The notes under the pieces: model-generated | The model's database searches: none | The model's input: the letters and a program-made list of their open reading frames with translations, nothing else | Told to the model about the DNA's origin: nothing | Made by a program: the position numbers and the translations under genes | Shown: positions 12,786 to 36,668 of the stretch, piece after piece | Layout of the letters: each line of letters opens with the position of its first letter | How positions within the stretch are numbered: position 1 is the first letter of the stretch | DNA from: a virus | DNA length: 39,843 nucleotides | Reading direction: 5' to 3' (one strand) | IMG/VR virus record: IMGVR_UViG_3300029893_000027

Positions 12786-13513
12786 ACGGCGAAGATATCA
12801 AAAAGGAAGGCGATACAGAACCAGTAGGCGAAAACCTGGAAACACTGAAATCGCAATTAAATGCGATGAAAGGCGAGATGGAACAACTAAAGGCTGCGAA
12901 AGCTGATTTAGAGAAAAAACTGGATGATGCTGACAAAGAACTTCTCAGCCCTGACTATCTTGAGTTCATTGAGGGAAGGAGAGGTGCAGGTGCACCAGCG
13001 CCAGCAGCAGAGAAGGAAATAAACTTTGATGAAATGACACCTGCACAAATTGCACAGTATTTTGAAAGCAAGTATAAGGGTGACTTGGAGAAAGCAGGGA
13101 AGGCTGTCACAGACAGAATGGACGCAATTGAGGATGGGATTGGAAGACTTGCTGCTCAAATTGACCTCACCCTCACATCTATGAAATATAAAGATTTAGG
13201 TGAGGCACTCGAGACACCGATTAAAGAACGAACTGAAGAGCAGAAAGCACTTGTTGACAAAATCTACAACATAGCAATAGAAAATCCAACCTGGCCAACT
13301 GAAAAGTGCTACAAAGTCGCAAAGATGGAAATAAAAGAAGAGGCAGAGGCAAGGGAAGCTGCGAAGAGGGAGAAGGCTGAGAAGGAGCGAAAAACGCTGA
13401 CTGAAAAGCCTGGTGCTGTAGAAGCACTATTGCAAGGTAAGCAACTAAGCAAAGAAGAGGCAGCAGAAAAGGCGTGGAGAGCATCATTTGGTAATAAGCA
13501 GTCTGTGGATTAG
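12782..13513 (+). CDS. Scaffolding protein (putative)
   Basis: Acidic/Lys-rich and predicted coiled-coil (EMEQLKAAKADLEKKLDDADKE, EEAEAREAAKREKAEKERK). It lies between the portal and capsid genes. Confidence 0.6.
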   Translation: MNGEDIKKEGDTEPVGENLETLKSQLNAMKGEMEQLKAAKADLEKKLDDADKELLSPDYLEFIEGRRGAGAPAPAAEKEINFDEMTPAQIAQYFESKYKGDLEKAGKAVTDRMDAIEDGIGRLAAQIDLTLTSMKYKDLGEALETPIKERTEEQKALVDKIYNIAIENPTWPTEKCYKVAKMEIKEEAEAREAAKREKAEKERKTLTEKPGAVEALLQGKQLSKEEAAEKAWRASFGNKQSVD

Positions 13514-13534
13514 TGGAAGAAAGAGAGGTGAGAA

Positions 13535-14224
13535 ATGGCACTTTCGTATGTTGAGCAGTTGGATACTCTCGCAAAGTGTAAGGGAGCATCTGGAGAAATG
13601 ATGAGACGAATAGAGTTGCTTTCGGATGCGGAAAGAGCCTATCTCGCTGGTATTTTTGATGGAGAAGGTTGTGTTGTCCTCTACAAAGACAAGATGTGTG
13701 AGGTTAGCAAAAGGGGTTATCCCATTTTTCGCTGCTACTTATTTATTGCCAACACATCTTTAGAGTTAATCCTGCATCTTTACAAAATGACTGGTATTGG
13801 GACGCCAAGAGACAGAAAGACAAGCGGCAAAAGGAGACCGTTGTTTGATTGGCGTGTGGGAGGAACTCAAGACATTTTAGACCTGATAGAAGCAATGCAT
13901 CCCTTTTCCATAGTCAAGAAAAGACAGTTGGAGATAGTTTATGAAGTTGTGTCTACATTTAAGAGAAACAATTTCGTAACAGCTGAAGTGAACGCACGGA
14001 GAGAGCGACTATTTAAAGAGTTACAGTCCATCCTGCATCCAGATGAAAAATTGGGTGAATTCGGTGAACATCCAAAAATGGACGATACCGAGCCAAGCTC
14101 CAGAAGTGGAGAAGGTGTGGAGGTCAGTCCTGAAATAATGGACATAAGTGCCCAACCGAATGAAGCGGATGAGATGACCCGAGCTACACAGCAATGTGTA
14201 GAACTACAGGGGAGATACCTGTAG
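13535..14224 (+). CDS. LAGLIDADG homing endonuclease (single-motif, I-CreI-like). The first 10-20 codons may instead be capsid exon 1.
   Basis: Contains the motif YLAGIFDGEGCVV and a downstream helix, HPFSIVKKRQLEIVYEV. Internal ATG-ATG at 13598 would place the motif about 16 aa from the N-terminus, as in I-CreI. Confidence 0.85.
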   Translation: MALSYVEQLDTLAKCKGASGEMMRRIELLSDAERAYLAGIFDGEGCVVLYKDKMCEVSKRGYPIFRCYLFIANTSLELILHLYKMTGIGTPRDRKTSGKRRPLFDWRVGGTQDILDLIEAMHPFSIVKKRQLEIVYEVVSTFKRNNFVTAEVNARRERLFKELQSILHPDEKLGEFGEHPKMDDTEPSSRSGEGVEVSPEIMDISAQPNEADEMTRATQQCVELQGRYL

Positions 14225-14256
14225 GATAACAAAACTGGTACACGACTACCTTTCAG

Positions 14257-15189
14257 TTGCGTCGAAGACAAATAATCGATCAAATTTTTACAGCAACACC
14301 ATTATGGTATTTGCTGACAAAGAAAGGCAAACGCACAACTGAAGCTGGTGGTAGGTGGATAGAAATTCCTCTGCAATATGCACGCAATGAGACTGTGCAG
14401 TTCTTTGGAAAGGGCGATGCAATCTCAATTGCAGACACTCAACCTCTCACAGTAGCAAGGTGGGATTGGAAATACCTTGCAGGCAGCATCGTTAGATACT
14501 TTGTAGATGACCAGAAGAATAGGGGTCAGGCAGCAGTCATCAATATGATGAATGCGAAGATTGATAACTTACAAAGTAGTTTAATTGATAAGTTAGAAAA
14601 TTCGCTATTCGGAGATGGAACTGCTGATGCTGGAAAAGCAATTGATGGATTTGGTAACATAATTGCTGAAGTTCCTACTTCTGGGACAGTTGCAGGAATT
14701 GACCGTGCAACTTATGTTTGGTGGAGAAATAATGCCACCAATATGACTGGTCTTAGTGCATCTGTCAATCTACGTAAGTATATGTCGACTATGTTTAACG
14801 ATTGCGGAAGGCAAGGTGAAGGTGTAACACGCTTCCCAGATTTGATTGTTACCTCACAGACCACCTATGAATACTATGAGAGTGAGTGCCTTGAGATTGC
14901 TCAAATCCGCATTGGCGATAGGACATTAGCTGACCTTGGTTTTGGAGATTTAGCATACAAGGGAAGACCAATGACTTGGTCACCTGCACTTACTGCAAAT
15001 AGTATGTATTTTGTGAATACTGCATTTTTGCAATGGGTTGCAGACCCTATTGCTAATTTCGATATGACCGAGTGGAAGCCAATAATAGACCAGCCGAATG
15101 ACAGAGTTGCACAGGTAGTTACAGTAGGCAATTTGGTGTGCAGTAATTGCAAGAGGCAAGGCGTGTTGTTCAATATTGACACTCCATAA
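14257..15189 (+). CDS. Major capsid protein (HK97-fold candidate), probably a 3' exon lacking its own start
   Basis: Assigned by position after the scaffold gene, size, and capsid-like sequence (IIDQIFTATPLWYLL, GGRWIEIPLQY, GIDRATYVWWRN). The only start is TTG at 14257 with no SD, and the frame is open from 14230. Confidence 0.65.
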   Translation: MRRRQIIDQIFTATPLWYLLTKKGKRTTEAGGRWIEIPLQYARNETVQFFGKGDAISIADTQPLTVARWDWKYLAGSIVRYFVDDQKNRGQAAVINMMNAKIDNLQSSLIDKLENSLFGDGTADAGKAIDGFGNIIAEVPTSGTVAGIDRATYVWWRNNATNMTGLSASVNLRKYMSTMFNDCGRQGEGVTRFPDLIVTSQTTYEYYESECLEIAQIRIGDRTLADLGFGDLAYKGRPMTWSPALTANSMYFVNTAFLQWVADPIANFDMTEWKPIIDQPNDRVAQVVTVGNLVCSNCKRQGVLFNIDTP

Positions 15190-15271
15190 TAATATGGGGT
15201 GTTAGTGGCACGGCACTTAACTGAACTTTACACTCCGTGCGGTGTAAAGGATACAGAAGGAGGAAATTGAA

Positions 15272-16015
15272 ATGGCAGACCCAAGAACAACAGTATGGGG
15301 TAAACAAGTCGGGCCAACAGTTGTCGGTCAAGACATTTATGAGGAAAGTAGCACGCCAAAATGTAGAATTGGTTTACTACTGCAGCTTGGTGACCGTTTC
15401 TTTCGCTATGCAAAGAATGGAGCTGTTGCATTAGCAAAAGGGAAGATGACACAAGGAGCAGTAGCAATTGCAAACCACAGGAATATAGTAGTTGCAGCTG
15501 CTGCACCTGCTGCTACAACAACAGTAACTGTCACTTTAGGTGCAACTGCAGTGGTAGCAAACCAATATGCAGATGGTTACTTGCACGTAAATAATGAAGC
15601 TGGAGAAGGCGTGACATATAGAATTAAGTCACACCCAGCTGCAGCTGCAAGTGCAAACCTCGTAGTTACACTATATGATGCACTTGAGACTGCACTTACA
15701 ACAACAAGCAGAGTGACGTTGACAAAGGGCAAGTATGATAGTGTGGTAATTGCACCAGCCGCTGGTTTAACAAGTGCAGCAACGGGAGTTCCTCTCATTA
15801 ATGTCGCCGCAGGCAACTTCTTCTGGATGCAGACAAAAGGCCCTGCAGCTGTTCTTACACAAGGAACAATTGTGATTGGGCAGAATGTTGGATTAGGTGG
15901 CACAGTTGATGGTGCTTGTGGCCCAGTAGGTGCAGTGACAACTGACGTCTGGGGTCGTGTTCTTCAAGTCAATGCAAGCACTGACTATAGCTTAATTGAC
16001 CTATCACTTGAATAA
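15272..16015 (+). CDS. Virion protein, possibly head decoration/cement (A/V/T-rich beta protein)
   Basis: Strong SD GAAGGAGG, immediately after the capsid gene. Motifs such as GDRFFRYAKNGAVALAKG and GYLHVNNEAGEG recall DUF2190-type decoration proteins. This is from memory and not verified. Confidence 0.45.
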   Translation: MADPRTTVWGKQVGPTVVGQDIYEESSTPKCRIGLLLQLGDRFFRYAKNGAVALAKGKMTQGAVAIANHRNIVVAAAAPAATTTVTVTLGATAVVANQYADGYLHVNNEAGEGVTYRIKSHPAAAASANLVVTLYDALETALTTTSRVTLTKGKYDSVVIAPAAGLTSAATGVPLINVAAGNFFWMQTKGPAAVLTQGTIVIGQNVGLGGTVDGACGPVGAVTTDVWGRVLQVNASTDYSLIDLSLE

Positions 16016-23122: not shown

Positions 23123-24100
23123 ATGCCATTACCAAAGTGGGTACTTCCAGCAGCAATAGGAGCACTTGGAGGATTATTAGGAAGGCGTGGAATACGTGGG
23201 AGACCAGGGGGAATTGAGCGTATGCCAATTTTAGCACCAGAACAACAACGAATACTGGCAAGACTTACACCATTTGTTGAAGAACGAATTGGGCGAGGAT
23301 TACCTGCGTGGGAAGGACCATGGATAGCGCCACCTTCACCAGAAGAAGAAATAGGACTTGGAAGACTTGGTGAATATTTACGTGCTGGTATTCCAGAAAT
23401 AACAGAATTTGGTTTAGGACGGTTCAGGGAAGCACTTGCTGGACTAACACCAGAAGAGACAGAAGCGTGGTGGCGTGCATACAGACAACCAATGTGGCAG
23501 AGAATGTGGGAAGAAGAGATAGTGCCTGGATTGAGAGAGGCAAGAGTTGCACCAGGCACATTGTATGGGACGCCGTATGTGACAGATGTAGAAAGAATGA
23601 TGGGAAGGTGGGCAGAAGCACAACAGGCAGAACTTGGTAGAGCAATAATGGAAGAAAGGGAAGCAGCGAGAGCTATGTTACCTTACGTGCCAGAAATGGC
23701 TGCACTTGTTGAAGAGGCACCACTTCGTAGGGCACGGGCAGCAATGGAGTTAGGTGCATTGCCTCGATTGTTGAGACAAGCGGAAATTGCTGCTCAATTT
23801 GAGGAGTTCAGACGAACAACACCAGAATTATCACCTGTGCTTGATTTAGCAATGAATTTACTGCGTTTACAGACACAAGCAGCATTTTATAGACCGTATC
23901 GACCATCTCCACTCGTGGAAATACTTGGTGCAATTGCACCTGGGGTTGGAGCATACTTGGGCGGGTTAGCAACTGATGGGGTTAGTAGATTAGCTAGTGA
24001 AATAGCTGGCCAAATAGGGCCTGCCCTTTCTCGTCGTACTAGAGACCCATTAAGACCTATTACCAGACATGAGATAGAAGCTATTTTGAGAGGAGAGTAA
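23123..24100 (+). CDS. Internal virion/ejection protein candidate (325 aa, R/E/A/P-rich)
   Basis: SD AAAGGAGGTAAAG, an N-terminal hydrophobic segment (WVLPAAIGALGGLLG), and a position before the giant protein. Confidence 0.5.
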   Translation: MPLPKWVLPAAIGALGGLLGRRGIRGRPGGIERMPILAPEQQRILARLTPFVEERIGRGLPAWEGPWIAPPSPEEEIGLGRLGEYLRAGIPEITEFGLGRFREALAGLTPEETEAWWRAYRQPMWQRMWEEEIVPGLREARVAPGTLYGTPYVTDVERMMGRWAEAQQAELGRAIMEEREAARAMLPYVPEMAALVEEAPLRRARAAMELGALPRLLRQAEIAAQFEEFRRTTPELSPVLDLAMNLLRLQTQAAFYRPYRPSPLVEILGAIAPGVGAYLGGLATDGVSRLASEIAGQIGPALSRRTRDPLRPITRHEIEAILRGE

Positions 24101-24144: not shown

Positions 24145-24636
24145 ATGGCAGAGTTATTTTCCCAATTTGATTTGGGGTGGTTAGTTGGAATGATTGAAGG
24201 TGAAGGTTGTTTGAGTTGTAAAGCTGGATATGATAAAAGAGATGATAGAACCAGAGTAATGCTGAGGGTAACTATATCAACATCGAGTGTTCCTCTCAGA
24301 GACAATATAATTAGAGTATACAACGGGATGGGAGTTGAATATAGTATTCACGTAACTAAACCTAAGACTTATATCGGGAGAGATGTCTATCATATAAATG
24401 TTCAAGCACATAAAAGTATTTTAAAAGTTCTTTTACCAATAGTCAATTATTTGTTAAGTGGAAAAAAACAAATTGCTCAATCTATGATTGATTACATCAA
24501 AAATAGATTAGACAAAGGTGGGAAAGAAAAATATGATGATGTAGATTATTATTTAGCTAACAAAATAAGAAGTTTATGTACTGAATACAACATAAAAAAG
24601 GGTGCTAAAATGGGAGGTGAAATATGGCAGGTTTAA
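24145..24636 (+). CDS. LAGLIDADG homing endonuclease (single-motif, free-standing)
   Basis: Motif WLVGMIEGEGCLS at residues 12-24, I-CreI-like size (163 aa), SD GTGAGGTG. Confidence 0.85.
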   Translation: MAELFSQFDLGWLVGMIEGEGCLSCKAGYDKRDDRTRVMLRVTISTSSVPLRDNIIRVYNGMGVEYSIHVTKPKTYIGRDVYHINVQAHKSILKVLLPIVNYLLSGKKQIAQSMIDYIKNRLDKGGKEKYDDVDYYLANKIRSLCTEYNIKKGAKMGGEIWQV

Positions 24637-25283
24637 CTTGGCTTGGTGTCTTACCAAGAGAAGATAGGTGGAGTTATTTAGCTGAAGCAATAAGAGAAGG
24701 ACTTGGAGCGTATATTGGTGCAAGGGAAAGAAGGGAACAGAGAGAATTGGAAAGAGCACGAATTAGACCGTGGGAAAGACAATTTGAATTAGAAGAGAGA
24801 AAAATTGCTGCAGAAGAAAGAAGAGAAACTGTACGTGCACTGCTGGAAAGCGATGAACAAGTATTTCGACGACTTCACGCAGAACTTGAAGCCATCGACT
24901 GGGACAAAAGACTGCCCTTCCTAAGAGAAAGAGCTCCTATGTTGGATGCAACATATATTGGCAGAGAGTGGCAAAGGCAATTTGGTGAACGTTTTAGTGA
25001 TATGTATATCAGAGCATACGAAGCTACTCAAGACCCTCCTAAAATAGGTTGGTGGCAACGCCTATTCGGAGGTGAGAGAGTTACGCCTCCACCGTTTCCA
25101 CCACCTGCACCAACAGCGCCTACAGTCACACCGCCCGCGCCAGCTGCAATCGCAGACTACTATGTACCACCACCAGCGCCAAGAAGAAGGAGGGGAAGAA
25201 TAAGAGTTAGACTTAAAGCCACAGGACAAACTGGCACAATCGAAGAACACGAATTTGACCCTGCAATTTATGAGAGGTTCTAA
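24624..25283 (+). CDS. Internal virion protein candidate (219 aa, R/E-rich with a Pro-rich tail)
   Basis: The SD GGGAGGTGAAAT lies inside the endonuclease 3' end. Contains a PPPFPPPAPTAPTVTPPAPA tract. Confidence 0.55.
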   Translation: MAGLTWLGVLPREDRWSYLAEAIREGLGAYIGARERREQRELERARIRPWERQFELEERKIAAEERRETVRALLESDEQVFRRLHAELEAIDWDKRLPFLRERAPMLDATYIGREWQRQFGERFSDMYIRAYEATQDPPKIGWWQRLFGGERVTPPPFPPPAPTAPTVTPPAPAAIADYYVPPPAPRRRRGRIRVRLKATGQTGTIEEHEFDPAIYERF

Positions 25284-29533: not shown

Positions 29534-30832
29534 ATGAACGTCTTATTTGTTAGTATGAGTGGCGACTCACTCTCTCTCGCTGAGCGTGTGCAAAGAGAGG
29601 GACACAATGTGTTCTTCTACATATATGAAGAAAAGGCACAGAAAATTGGGGATGGAATAGTGCAGAAGCCAAAGTGTAAGTTGCCAATAATGACGAAGAA
29701 GACTCGTAAAGTAATTAAGGCGAATGTGAATGTGCTTTTGCGTGAAGTACAGCCTGATTTCTGTGTATTTGATATGGTGAAGATGGGAGAAGTTGCTGAC
29801 TGCATACGCACACAAAATATACCTGTATTTGGTGCAAGCAAGTGGGCTGATGTTGCTGAACTTGACCGTGCGTATGGATATAAGTTGATGAAGGCAACGG
29901 ACATACGCACTCCTCTCACACATATGTTTACTGCAGGACAACATGAAAAGGCAGCGGAGTTTGTGCAGAAGACGGGAAAAAGGTATGTGTATAAGCCGAG
30001 TGGGAATATTGAGTGTTCTCATACATATGTTGCAAAAGGAACAGAGGATATGATAGCGATGTTGCAACTTTGGCATAATGACAAGTGTGAGTTTGAGTTG
30101 CAGGAGTATGTAGAAGGAGTTGAGGTAAGTTGTGAAATTTGGTGGAATGGCATCAGCGCACATTTGCACAACTGGACGATGGAAGAGAAGAAGTTTATGA
30201 ATGACGATGTTGGGCCTGCGATGGGATGTGCAGGCAATGTGGTTGCTTTCTTACCTTCGAAAAGTAGATTGGTAAGAGAAGGTGTGGGAAAGATGGAACG
30301 CTTACTGAAGAAAGTACAATATCGTGGCCCAATTGATTTGAACTCAATTGTGAATAAAGATGGTTTGTTTGGGTTAGAGTTTACAGTGAGATTTGGATAT
30401 GATGCTGTGCAAACATTGCTCGAACTTTACCGTGGCTCTCTTACACAACTATTATTTGCAATAGCGACAGGAAGTAATGAACATGGAGAATATCACAGTG
30501 GATATGCAATTGGCGTTCGTGTCAGTATACCGCCTTATCCTCACACTGCAGAAAATGTCCCTATAGGAGTGCCAGTGATTGGAACTAATAGTGAGAACTT
30601 AAAACATATTTGGTGGGGTGATGTGCGAGCGGGAAGCAAATATTATGAGAGTGCAGGTAGTGATGGTAATTTAGGTGTGGTGACTGCAAGAGGGTCGGAT
30701 GTGAGGGAATGTCGTCGTCGTGTTTATAGGACAATAAATAATTTAATTATACCACAAGCGCAGTATCGAACTGACATAGGGGAGAGGGTAAATGAAGATG
30801 TTAAAAGGTTAAAAATGTGGGGTTACTTATAA
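29534..30832 (+). CDS. ATP-grasp ligase, PurD (glycinamide ribonucleotide synthetase)-like but divergent
   Basis: Collinear by eye with E. coli PurD: VFGASKWADVAELDRAYGYKLM, YVYKPSG, LQEYVEGVEVSCE, EEKKFMNDDVGPAMGCAGN, GLEFTVRFGYDAVQ and GVVTARGSDVRECRRRVY. It lacks the N-terminal GGREHA loop and the GDPE motif. Confidence 0.7.
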   Translation: MNVLFVSMSGDSLSLAERVQREGHNVFFYIYEEKAQKIGDGIVQKPKCKLPIMTKKTRKVIKANVNVLLREVQPDFCVFDMVKMGEVADCIRTQNIPVFGASKWADVAELDRAYGYKLMKATDIRTPLTHMFTAGQHEKAAEFVQKTGKRYVYKPSGNIECSHTYVAKGTEDMIAMLQLWHNDKCEFELQEYVEGVEVSCEIWWNGISAHLHNWTMEEKKFMNDDVGPAMGCAGNVVAFLPSKSRLVREGVGKMERLLKKVQYRGPIDLNSIVNKDGLFGLEFTVRFGYDAVQTLLELYRGSLTQLLFAIATGSNEHGEYHSGYAIGVRVSIPPYPHTAENVPIGVPVIGTNSENLKHIWWGDVRAGSKYYESAGSDGNLGVVTARGSDVRECRRRVYRTINNLIIPQAQYRTDIGERVNEDVKRLKMWGYL

Positions 30833-34415: not shown

Positions 34416-36668
34416 TCACCTTTTGTGCATTTCGTCCCAGTTTTTACCTGTCTTAATCTCAACAGGGATTGTGAATGTCTTGTTGTTTATTGTGAGAGGT
34501 ATTTTAAATATTTCTTTAATTGCATCAGCATACATGTTTACTTCTCCTTCCGCACATTGCACCACAAAGGCATCATGTATTTGCAACATAATCTCCGCAT
34601 TTGGTATTGATTTCTTTAAATTGATGATTGCCAAATTTAAGACATCAGCAACTGTGGATTGCGGTATGTAGCTATATGCCTCACGAAACAATTGCTCTCC
34701 CCAACGACCAAAGAATAGTCTTTTTCTTCCCATTGGTGTTTCCATTATTCGTGTTTTAGAAAGATGTGCTTGTATTTGTAATTGCCACATTTTGATTTTT
34801 GGGAATGTGTCAAAATACTTCTGCAATACCTCCCTTGCTTTGCTTTCTTTGATTTGTGCGTGGTAAGCAAATGTTCTTACACCAATTCCGTAATTACTTC
34901 CGTGCACTAATCTTTTTGCCAGCTCTCTATCAACACCAATCCATTCTGCAACTTGTGCGTGTATGTCACCTCCTTTCTCGAACAAATTAATTAATTTCTC
35001 TTCTCCTGAGAGGTATGCGACAATTCTTGCTTCGGCTTGCGACAAATCTGCCTCAATAAACACCTTTCCTTCGTCAGCGACAAACATCTTTCTGCAAATG
35101 CCTTTTGGTATATTTTGTAAATTTGACCCAGTGCCAAACACACTTTCTCTACTGGATAGTCTTCCTGTTTTTGTTCCACCGATGAGATATGAGCATCTTA
35201 TCCTCTCTCCTTCATCTGTCAAATATGTTCCTAACAGCTTCAGGTTCTTTCTTATTGTTAAGATTAAATCAAATACCTCATTTGGATATTGTGCTGCAAG
35301 TGCTTCAATTGCTTCTTCATCTGTTGTTTCTGTTCCTCGCACTCTGCTAATGCGAGGAGGCAATTTCATCTCTTCATAAAATAATTGTTTAAGTTGCTTT
35401 GGTGACACCACATTTACCTGTCTTCCTACCAATTCATTCAATCTGTTTTGTGTTTCTGCAACTTTTCTCAAGCATTCCTCATTTGCTTGTAGCCTTACGA
35501 GATTATCAACTTTCACTCCTCTTATTTGCATCTCAGTTAATATTGGTATCAATGGATGCACCAGTTTGTAGTAAAAGTCATACACACCAAACTCTTTCAT
35601 TTCCTTCTCAATTGCAATTGCAGTTTCAAATGCAATGCAGGCATCCATTGCATTATACTTCCAAAAATCTACTGCTGAGCCAGTTTTTGCCCAATGTTTA
35701 TAGTAAGGTTGACGAGTATAAATACTGCATAATACTTCTAATCCTTTAGGCAATTCTGGGTAAATTGTGTGGTGAGCGCACATTGTGTCCATCACCAAAT
35801 TTTTGGTATTGATGTAAGGAGGATTGATGGCAAATATGACACAATCAAATTGAGCATTTTGTGCAATCTTCTCAATTTTCTCATCTTCCATCAACTTTTT
35901 TATTTCATTCATTACCGCAATTTCTTCTTCTATTGTTGGCCAGTAGTTGATGGTCTCTGTTCCTTTGCTAAATGTGAAGGGAATGCAGATGGCAGAAAAA
36001 GGCGAATCAGCAAATGCGATGGCAGTTATTATAGTTCCTTCTGTTTCAATATCAAATGCAATTTTTTTACATTTTTGCAACCTAACCAATTCACACATCA
36101 CTTGTTCAAATGTTGGTGCAAGAATGAAGTCCCTATTTGGTATATTACATTTTGGTGTCTCACTTTCTTCCTTCACTTTTCGCAGGTCGAATAAAACAAG
36201 TGGTGCAAAATCCCATTGACGCATAATCATTGCAGGGTGCACTGTGGGAATAACTTTGACATTAAGACGATGATGCCAAAGAATACTGCCACGCCAATCA
36301 GTAATATTTCTGTGGGAGAATAGTGCCATCAATGCTTCATTTCCTAAAGCACAGACAACATTTGGTCTGCACTTTTTGATGTCTTCCAACAAATATTTTC
36401 TTCCTTCAATTAATTCTGGCTTTGGTATATGCATCTGTTTGTCAACATAGAAGTGAGCAAAGTTATTCGTTGGCGGACGAATTCTCATTACATTTGCAAG
36501 ACGACATTCACTTCTCACTATACCTACATCCATCAATAACTTATCAAGTATTCGTCCTGCACTTCCAACAAAGGGTCGTCCTTGTGCTTCTTCTTCTGCG
36601 CCAGGTGCTTCCCCTACTATGTAAATCTTTGCGTCAGTGGGACCTTCAAATGGAACTATTGTATTCAT
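34416..36668 (-). CDS. polA: Family A DNA polymerase with 3'-5' exonuclease and an N-terminal family-4 UDG-like domain
   Basis: The UDG4 motifs GEAPGAEEEAQGRPFVGSAGRIL and VHPAMIMR lie in residues 1-165. Exo I is IAFDIETEG. The Pol motifs are A (EADLSQAEARIVA), B (RELAKRLVHGSNYG) and C (QIHDAFV). Confidence 0.9.
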   Translation of the reverse strand: MNTIVPFEGPTDAKIYIVGEAPGAEEEAQGRPFVGSAGRILDKLLMDVGIVRSECRLANVMRIRPPTNNFAHFYVDKQMHIPKPELIEGRKYLLEDIKKCRPNVVCALGNEALMALFSHRNITDWRGSILWHHRLNVKVIPTVHPAMIMRQWDFAPLVLFDLRKVKEESETPKCNIPNRDFILAPTFEQVMCELVRLQKCKKIAFDIETEGTIITAIAFADSPFSAICIPFTFSKGTETINYWPTIEEEIAVMNEIKKLMEDEKIEKIAQNAQFDCVIFAINPPYINTKNLVMDTMCAHHTIYPELPKGLEVLCSIYTRQPYYKHWAKTGSAVDFWKYNAMDACIAFETAIAIEKEMKEFGVYDFYYKLVHPLIPILTEMQIRGVKVDNLVRLQANEECLRKVAETQNRLNELVGRQVNVVSPKQLKQLFYEEMKLPPRISRVRGTETTDEEAIEALAAQYPNEVFDLILTIRKNLKLLGTYLTDEGERIRCSYLIGGTKTGRLSSRESVFGTGSNLQNIPKGICRKMFVADEGKVFIEADLSQAEARIVAYLSGEEKLINLFEKGGDIHAQVAEWIGVDRELAKRLVHGSNYGIGVRTFAYHAQIKESKAREVLQKYFDTFPKIKMWQLQIQAHLSKTRIMETPMGRKRLFFGRWGEQLFREAYSYIPQSTVADVLNLAIINLKKSIPNAEIMLQIHDAFVVQCAEGEVNMYADAIKEIFKIPLTINNKTFTIPVEIKTGKNWDEMHKR

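Follow-up and report, generated by a model that had tools for sequence, protein, structure and literature searches.

The window analysed here is a 39,843-nucleotide (nt) stretch of viral DNA (IMG/VR record IMGVR_UViG_3300029893_000027), and the element in question lies near the 5′ end of its major capsid gene, where an open reading frame (ORF) for a LAGLIDADG homing endonuclease precedes the head-protein ORF. The ORF listing and our reading of positions 13300-15400 place the two in different frames. The downstream ORF encodes a major head protein (phrog_9953, 1.4e-59); its frame is closed by a TAA at 14227-14229, is open from 14230 and offers as its sole listed start a TTG at 14257 without a Shine-Dalgarno site. 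Upstream of it, an ATG at 13535 that follows gaaagagaggtgagaa opens a 229-amino-acid (aa) ORF (13535-14224) with a tandem ATG-ATG at 13598/13601, 21 codons further on. An initial annotation of this DNA had read these frames and starts, including a Shine-Dalgarno site before 13535, just as we find them, and had proposed a candidate group I intron with a LAGLIDADG endonuclease splitting the capsid gene; homologues that restore the missing N-terminus and a covarying group I architecture bear this proposal out, with altered junctions. An 801-nt sequence from the window is 100% identical in four other independent assemblies, so it is neither an assembly artefact nor obviously from a dying phage. 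Samples that contain this phage include SRR13164376, SRR5011275, SRR28264341 and SRR5011273. The public protein collections store the locus as two proteins, P0121 (229 aa) and P0001 (a 310-aa capsid protein with the TTG start). P0121 is capsid exon 1 followed by the endonuclease and translated ribozyme, and both entries are annotation artefacts of the intron.

The open capsid frame, used as a query, recovered 220 homologues, of which the intact ones are 327-328 aa long and begin MALSYTEQLDTLYTTTFQLRRK, with the aligned start MALSYTEQLDTL-YTTTFQLRRK. In the PHROG alignment of the capsid ORF, the first matched residue already precedes the TTG; it is that of the fourth codon past the stop, aligned to profile position 13. 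In the window, MALSYVEQLDTL is encoded from 13535, where MALSYVEQLDT and a following CU occupy 13535-13569, and YTTTFQLRRR in another frame from 14239, 668 nt downstream; the 12 residues from 13535 and the six at 14239-14256 match the N-terminus of 23 intact homologues. The alignment to intact homologues that the initial annotation had suggested thus shows 18 N-terminal residues to be missing from the TTG-initiated protein. The capsid gene is contiguous, with the same Shine-Dalgarno site, in relatives with 83% protein identity (L001 and L002, and also L003 and L004). At the DNA level, the Shine-Dalgarno site and first 36 nt of the intron-less relatives align to window positions 13519-13570 and their next codons to 14239 onward, and the uninterrupted site in L001 reads ...GACAGTCTCTACACCACC... 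Joining 13535-13569 to 14238-15189 gives a coding sequence of 987 nt for a 328-aa product that matches phrog_9953 over its full length (3e-60, residues 9-323 on profile positions 9-327 of 329), and this product enters the profile at position 9, P0001 at position 20. The predicted spliced protein starts MALSYVEQLDTLYTTTFQ, with the N-terminal peptide (M)ALSYVEQLDTLYTTTFQLR and the junction-spanning stretch ...EQLDTLYTTTFQ... Overall, we are highly confident that a mobile group I intron interrupts the major capsid gene as laid out in Table 1.

The exact junction is best read from a divergent capsid gene (L012) that carries the closest relative of the endonuclease (P0122, 52% identity) at the same site. 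Its exon 1 ends ...AAU ACG AU and its exon 2 starts G UAC ACC, and only a join of AU to G restores the methionine of its homologues (NTMYTTTW), which fixes U(-1) and the terminal intron G in L012. By analogy, the window would splice CU to G to form a leucine codon, with U13569 as the last exon base and G14237 as the last intron base, so that the predicted exon ends are ...GGATACTCT and GTACACGACT... The initial annotation had exon 1 open at 13535, as we do, but ended it near 13565; it is 35 nt long and ends at 13569. The joins that it had drawn, from 13564 or 13567 to 14257, lose the conserved YTTTFQ and lack a U-G wobble at the splice site, and the G that it took for the intron 3′ end, G14256, gives way to G14237. 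A junction after C13570, with UAC (from 14239) as the start of exon 2, yields the same protein, but its last exon base is C, and in L012 it would place isoleucine where methionine is conserved. We also considered 316-aa capsid homologues ('MYTTTW...') as further split genes and rejected them: their DNA is contiguous and intron-free, an internal ATG having been chosen by the gene caller in L005 and L006, and L007 having an in-frame TAA. In the last (126-170; NCBI GCA_004196295.1, SDBS01306640.1), the sequence reads ATG CCG CCA ACA TTG ACG GAA CAA TAA AAA ACT ATG TAC, with the TAA at codon 9 and the homologue called from the internal methionine; this TAA could be a sequencing error, a mark of a pseudogene or a case of stop-codon recoding.

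The intervening RNA is, by its sequence and structure, a group I intron that would be self-splicing. A permissive scan of 13400-14400 aligns the Rfam group I model RF00028 end to end at 13965-14201 (20 bits, E = 0.016), and the minimum-free-energy fold of 14030-14245 independently recovers P4/P5, P6, P7, P7.1, P8, P9 and P9.1 (z = -2.9). We assembled a covariation set, A6, from the cores of four introns, namely those of the window, L012, L013 and L014. Its 39 pairs across P3, P4, P5, P6, P6a, P7, P7.1 and P9 are 99.4% paired, with one unpaired cell in 156, and 11 of them show compensatory double changes; none of 500 shuffles reaches any of five measures, and sliding the partners lowers pairing to 30-39%. 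P8 and P9.1 also covary, the P9.1 stem doing so in L013 and L014; the hairpin CTACAGG-ggagata-CCTGTAG, which the initial annotation had singled out as possible intron core, is present at 14204-14224 and is this P9.1. The window core accordingly displays the group I helix order with the P3/P7 pseudoknot, supported by covariation. It has an extra hairpin between P7 and P3′, which we take to be at the position of P7.1/P7.2 in subgroup IA of the Michel-Westhof classification. All four introns have a GNRA loop at L9 (GCAA in the window) and end in ...AACUG, with G as the last base.

The peripheral helices point the same way. In all four introns P1 places a U-G wobble at the splice site, and its guide is matched to each intron's own exon (Table 1); in L013, as an independent check, exon 1 cut at the 5′ splice site predicted from P1 runs on in frame into exon 2. 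The P1 drawn initially, AUACU with 13577-13581, is replaced by the pairing of 13566-13570 with 13582-13586; the intron segment used there (GUGUA, 13576-13580) forms P10 with exon 2. P2 directly follows P1 in all four cases, with its partner 5-9 nt before P3, and is formed by four unrelated sequences. For L012, an alternative P2 of 7 bp (110-116 with 515-521) was set aside for ACGUGG (75-80) with CCACGU (521-526), because P2 starts right after P1 in all four introns.

The intron ORF has a single LAGLIDADG motif, YLAGIFDGEG, at residues 15-24 of the 208-aa form that would start at 13598, which agrees with the spacing of about 16 residues from the N-terminus that had been predicted for this start; the motif has a glutamate at the catalytic position and is kept in relatives. 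The protein matches phrog_5046 (3e-19), though that family is labelled 'HNH endonuclease', and sequence searches give weak similarity to I-CreI-type enzymes. An AlphaFold (AF2) model has predicted local distance difference test (pLDDT) values mostly of 85-96 over residues 1-150 and below 50 for most of residues 151-208. Foldseek returns I-CreI, I-MsoI, I-CvuI and I-Vdi141I as its top matches (probability 1.00, E about 1e-7, target-normalised template modelling (TM) scores 0.72-0.76), and the fold is alpha-beta-beta-alpha-beta-beta-alpha. The modelled protein is thus a single-motif, I-CreI-like endonuclease and presumably acts as a homodimer. The codon of residue 150 closes at nt 14047, just short of the P3 start at 14051; as the confident fold stops where P3 begins, the tail GEFGEHPK...GVEVSPEIMDISA...MTRATQQCVE is the ribozyme core read as protein, and the earlier suggestion that the low-complexity C-terminus overlies intron core stands, with the last approximately 58 residues doing so. 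The conservation of this tail in P0122, P0123 and the L014 ORF is RNA conservation, and the non-intron relatives P0124-P0126 end before it. We looked by eye for a pseudo-palindromic homing site at the junction, where only TGTACA stood out, and drew no conclusion from it.

The related introns were reached by several routes. Searches with the endonuclease protein found the L012 intron (58-716) at the window's own site, in a gene whose capsid protein is about 64% identical to that of the window, and the L013 intron (112-746) after codon 9 of a phrog_371-type capsid gene, whose N-terminus in its spliced form shares 40% identity with the head protein (phrog_371) of L104. A single metagenome scan with a DNA pattern yielded one new intron, L014 (880 to 205, minus strand), in the window's capsid family but 10 nt downstream, after codon 16; an exact-pattern scan of viral_contigs with the conserved P7/P7.1 block had no match. 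R1, a covariance model that we built from A6, matches L104 at 82 bits, which places an intron at about 1955-2640, near the 3′ end of another head-protein gene (phrog_371-type). L104 has the consensus P7 GACUA/UAGUC, from which the window's GGUCA/UGACC differs by three compensatory pairs. RF00028 scores the window at 20 bits, L012 and L013 at about 30 and L104 at 47.3; the window's P7 is specific to a sub-lineage, and its intron therefore stays below the Rfam threshold. R1 also links this lineage to canonical group I introns, matching split genes of Pseudomonas phage KIL1 (55.7 and 42.3 bits) and the DNA polymerase of Erwinia phage phiEa1H (22.4 bits), and BLASTN against the introns of KIL1 and phiEa1H/phiEa100 gives 79-88% identity over P4-P6.

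All five of the related LAGLIDADG introns lie in major capsid genes, at four sites and in two unrelated capsid families, in what is a small, similarity-found sample; in all five, the endonuclease ORF runs through the whole ribozyme core in the same frame. This may be a ribozyme lineage specialised in capsid genes. The intron is polymorphic in presence among close relatives, and this polymorphism, the shared site in divergent capsid genes and the other sites elsewhere fit a mobile element. In KIL1 (L176, vB_PsyM_KIL1, KU130126.1 19759-22828), the R1 matches (596-802 at 42.3 bits, 1494-1661 at 55.7 bits) lie in and after the terminase large-subunit gene, which is annotated as joined from two pieces, as is the gene after next; KIL1 probably carries several introns related to the window lineage. 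Sub-threshold RF00028 and/or R1 matches were further seen beside LAGLIDADG genes in contigs from IMG/VR and in genome bins of Planctomycetota and Lentisphaeraceae (L117 1478-1663 and 2311-2519, L137 2310-2468, L059 2402-2584, L063 2464-2647), and these are likely to be additional group I introns.

Taken together, we propose that the late transcript would consist of the capsid Shine-Dalgarno site and AUG, the 35-nt exon 1, the intron and exon 2. The intron would fold so that P1 presents the U13569-G13583 wobble, P2 closes an approximately 440-nt loop with the endonuclease domain, and P3-P9/P9.1, with the P3/P7 pseudoknot and the extra hairpin P7.1 between P7 and P3′, form the catalytic core. 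In the two-step guanosine-initiated pathway, an external guanosine would attack after U13569, P10 (13576-80 with 14239-43) would align exon 2, the terminal G14237 would be released and the exons would be ligated as CU to G, to give the mRNA for the 328-aa capsid protein. The endonuclease, for its part, is predicted to cut intron-less capsid alleles of co-infecting relatives, whose repair would copy the intron in (homing).

Several observations weigh against this account. RF00028 gives no match at its gathering score or in the scan of the whole window, the window reaching 20 bits against the required 50; this score is a detection threshold and not a structural criterion, and the Rfam scan proposed by the initial annotation thus returned a core aligned end to end, yet below gathering. 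P7 and P7.1 are invariant across the four closest introns, and the support for P7 comes entirely from more distant relatives in a model-fitted alignment. P8 has just 3 bp; P10 has 5 bp in the window and L012 and is weak in L013 and L014. The endonuclease falls below the Pfam cut-offs for LAGLIDADG_1 and LAGLIDADG_3 (16.9 versus 23.1 and 18.3 versus 22.5 bits). Finally, the exon-1 frame is open throughout the intron, so that ribosomes should enter the ribozyme and hinder its folding, as argued from T4 introns (PMC3984707).

Gene callers gave exactly P0001 (310 aa) and P0121 (229 aa), as in the public databases, and a second endonuclease of that family does stand free in this phage at 24145-24636; both would suit a free-standing LAGLIDADG gene upstream of, or just inside, a capsid gene that is read from TTG 14257 as a 310-aa protein, its first 18 residues gone. 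We nonetheless hold this to be very improbable, as the TTG has no Shine-Dalgarno site, every intact homologue conserves the 18 residues, of which the window still encodes both halves with the original Shine-Dalgarno site and ATG, YTTTFQ is conserved in frame upstream of the TTG though it would be untranslated, and such a gene would have no reason to keep a covarying ribozyme core and exon-matched guides. The low Rfam score and the stop-free passage of the exon-1 frame through the ribozyme, expected to disturb folding, would be compatible instead with a decayed, non-splicing remnant in the capsid pseudogene of a defective phage or prophage. To this we give just as little credence: one unpaired core cell in 156 over four introns, together with the compensatory changes, speaks for continued selection on the RNA, the endonuclease ORF and capsid exons are intact, and assemblies of at least four further samples contain the same sequence, on contigs of 39.8 kb that approach genome length.

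Inteins, archaeal rRNA introns and a few group II introns also harbour LAGLIDADG enzymes, and a Thorarchaeota genome bin includes one of the capsid homologues, so that another kind of interruption (intein, group II intron, archaeal bulge-helix-bulge intron or translational bypassing) deserves mention, though we rate its chance as negligible. The initial annotation had rightly dismissed an intein from the difference in frames: 668 is indivisible by 3, and the frame of exon 2 is stopped at 14227-14229; a Pfam search of the locus ORFs found no Hint domain. A group II intron is excluded by the size of the insert, by the ORF type, with LAGLIDADG only and no reverse transcriptase, and by the group II families of Rfam, which have no match at E up to 10 in 13400-14400. 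Bypassing of 668 nt would lie far beyond any known translational hop, that of T4 gene 60 skipping 50 nt. Relatives encode SLT and DPBB peptidoglycan-lytic domains, which point to bacterial hosts. Against all four kinds stands the RNA itself, which in each of the four introns follows the group I order of helices and the rule of U and G at the splice sites.

Under our preferred reading of a group I intron, the open frame raises a question of its own. The exon-1 frame meets no stop in the intron and continues for 217 further codons via P1, P2 and the whole core to a UAG in P9.1. The exon-1 frame of L012 is also open, and its endonuclease lacks a separate AUG ahead of the motif; in L013 and L014 the exon frame is closed after 18 and two codons, respectively, and the endonuclease has its own Shine-Dalgarno site and AUG. 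The window's internal AUG codons at 13598/13601, the putative start, are preceded by a GGAG inside P2. The prior probability that the frames agree with no stop in the nine codons between them is about 0.2, and L012 is the sister of the window intron; the open frame in the two may be an accident rather than a device. It is possible, though unlikely, that the endonuclease of these two introns is made as a fusion to the first 12-13 capsid codons from the strong capsid ribosome-binding site, in a lineage that is also capsid-specialised. If so, each pre-mRNA would have one of two fates: translation, which yields endonuclease as ribosomes unfold the ribozyme, or splicing, which yields capsid protein. 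Such a kinetic switch might be likened to the exon-fused intron ORFs that occur in fungal mitochondria. It would be the opposite of the 'early in-frame stop' rule for phage introns, where such stops are viewed as stalling ribosomes and letting the ribozyme fold; ORF/core overlap as such is already known (PMC3984707).

Table 1. Features of the split capsid gene and its intron, in window coordinates, and P1 pairings of the four introns (arrow, 5′ splice site).
Feature	Coordinates	Strand	Details
Capsid ribosome-binding region	13519..13534	+	gaaagagaggtgagaa, GAGG 13525-13528; aligns upstream of ATG in L001, L002
Capsid exon 1, 35 nt	13535..13569	+	MALSYVEQLDT + CU (first two bases of Leu12), predicted end U13569
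Group I intron, 668 nt	13570..14237	+	predicted terminal G (omega-G) 14237; stop 14227-14229 in exon-2 frame
Capsid exon 2	14238..15189	+	G14238 completes Leu12 (CU+G), then YTTTFQLRRRQ... to stop
LAGLIDADG homing endonuclease ORF	13598..14224	+	208 aa from AUG 13598; 229 aa from AUG 13535, same frame
P1	13566..13586	+	CUCU↓C 13566-13570 with GGGAG 13582-13586; U13569-G13583 wobble at 5′ splice site
P10 guide part	13576..13580	+	GUGUA with exon 2 UACAC 14239-14243
P2 5′ strand	13587..13594	+	CAUCUGGA, with 14038-14045, 8 bp; overlaps GGAG 13592-13595 before internal AUGs
P2 3′ strand	14038..14045	+	UCCAGAUG; closes ~440-nt loop holding endonuclease domain
Ribozyme core	14051..14201	+	RF00028 alignment, minimum-free-energy fold, covariation counts
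P3	14051-56 / 14150-55		
P4	14061-66 / 14086-91		
P5	14071-74 / 14079-82		
P6	14092-94 / 14114-16		
P6a	14098-102 / 14107-111		
P7	14122-26 / 14175-79		
P7.1	14127-30 / 14140-43		
P8	14156-58 / 14166-68		
P9	14184-90 / 14195-201		GCAA loop
P9.1 hairpin	14204..14224	+	CUACAGG / CCUGUAG; endonuclease stop UAG 14222-14224 in 3′ strand
P1 pairing, window			exon CUCU↓C; guide GGGAG (pairing CUCU/GGAG)
P1 pairing, L012			exon UACGAU↓UG; guide CAGUCGUA (pairing ACGAU/GUCGU)
P1 pairing, L013			exon CUGAU↓UCC; guide GGAGUCAG (pairing CUGAU/GUCAG)
P1 pairing, L014			exon CCACU↓U; guide AGGUGG (pairing CCACU/GGUGG)

Elsewhere in the window, a second LAGLIDADG gene (24145-24636, plus strand; 163 aa, single motif, phrog_5046) has a G+C content of 0.32 versus 0.46-0.47 in its neighbours. 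It lies between the genes 23123-24100 and 24624-25283, overlapping the downstream start by 13 nt. We considered it as a second intron and rejected this: R1 and Rfam have no match there, and the upstream gene has homologues of full length (299-325 aa). In L177 the genes that flank its position are 57 nt apart without an insert, and the gene is free-standing. The R1 and Rfam scans detected no other group I signal in the window, and no transfer RNAs were found in it. Among the other genes, we observed a family A DNA polymerase with an N-terminal uracil-DNA-glycosylase-superfamily domain (34416-36668, minus strand; PF03167, 1.8e-26) and a 432-aa ORF (29534-30832, plus strand) matching the ATP-grasp and C-terminal domains of phosphoribosylglycinamide synthetase (GARS_A 1.4e-7, GARS_C below cut-off), which is unusual for an approximately 40-kb podovirus-like genome.

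The most immediate consequence is that the public gene calls are wrong, the 310-aa capsid protein being short of 18 residues and the 229-aa 'endonuclease' comprising 12 capsid residues at its start and about 58 of ribozyme at its end. As the curated Rfam threshold hides this intron, counts of similar introns in the capsid genes of viral metagenomes are probably too low, and R1 offers a means to find more members. A LAGLIDADG-bearing group I lineage is seen repeatedly in the most highly expressed phage gene, and, with the exon-1 frame open in two members and closed early in two, it forms a clean test case for splicing versus translation. The known picture of phage introns is unchanged by the window intron.

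In comparison with known systems, the joined terminase and neighbouring gene of KIL1 and the 'part A / part B' polymerase of phiEa1H/phiEa100 resemble the window in their related ribozyme cores and split host genes; unlike it, their introns lie in other host genes and have the canonical P7 GACUA/UAGUC, and no LAGLIDADG gene is annotated at these sites, phiEa1H having an HNH-like gene nearby. I-CreI, I-MsoI and I-CvuI are homodimeric single-motif enzymes of algal chloroplast rRNA group I introns. The window endonuclease shares with them the fold and the one motif approximately 16 residues from the N-terminus, and differs in its 13-21% identity, its 58-residue low-confidence tail and its location in a phage protein-coding gene rather than in rRNA. 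The T4 td, nrdB and nrdD introns (subgroup IA2) likewise interrupt protein-coding genes, have an internal endonuclease ORF and show an extra hairpin between P7 and P3′, but they encode GIY-YIG or HNH enzymes in place of LAGLIDADG, and in the window, unlike T4, no stop interrupts the exon-1 frame over the 668 nt, and the ORF spans the complete core.

The closest precedent by host gene is mycobacteriophage LittleE, which has a group I intron with a putative homing endonuclease in its major capsid gene (Pope et al. 2013, PMC3706429); a capsid-gene intron of lactococcal phage Tuc2009 is cited in the same work. As in LittleE, the window's capsid gene is split relative to intron-less relatives, with a last exon U and a last intron G, an internal endonuclease ORF and polymorphic presence. 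In LittleE, splicing was shown by reverse-transcription polymerase chain reaction and N-terminal sequencing, whereas we infer it from sequence; the window differs further in its fold with covariation support, its insertion 35 nt into the gene, its capsid family and its phage type (SU10-like portal and adaptor). In the Delta and Zeta crAss-like phages, group I introns are typical in major capsid genes and occur also in PolB and primase; they were recognised via endonuclease domains, and LAGLIDADG intron endonucleases are found among them too (Yutin et al. 2021, PMC7886860). The window shares with these the fragmentation of the major capsid gene of a metagenomic phage by a group I intron, but belongs to an unrelated lineage with a genome of about 40 kb and a single intron, whose junction and RNA structure are described here at the nucleotide level. 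As phage group I introns carry mostly GIY-YIG, HNH, PD-(D/E)xK or EDxHD enzymes (PMC3984707), a LAGLIDADG enzyme in one is less common, though not new. Accordingly, the intron with its capsid-gene location is of a kind already known, to which it adds a LAGLIDADG-bearing group I lineage with a sub-lineage-specific P7.

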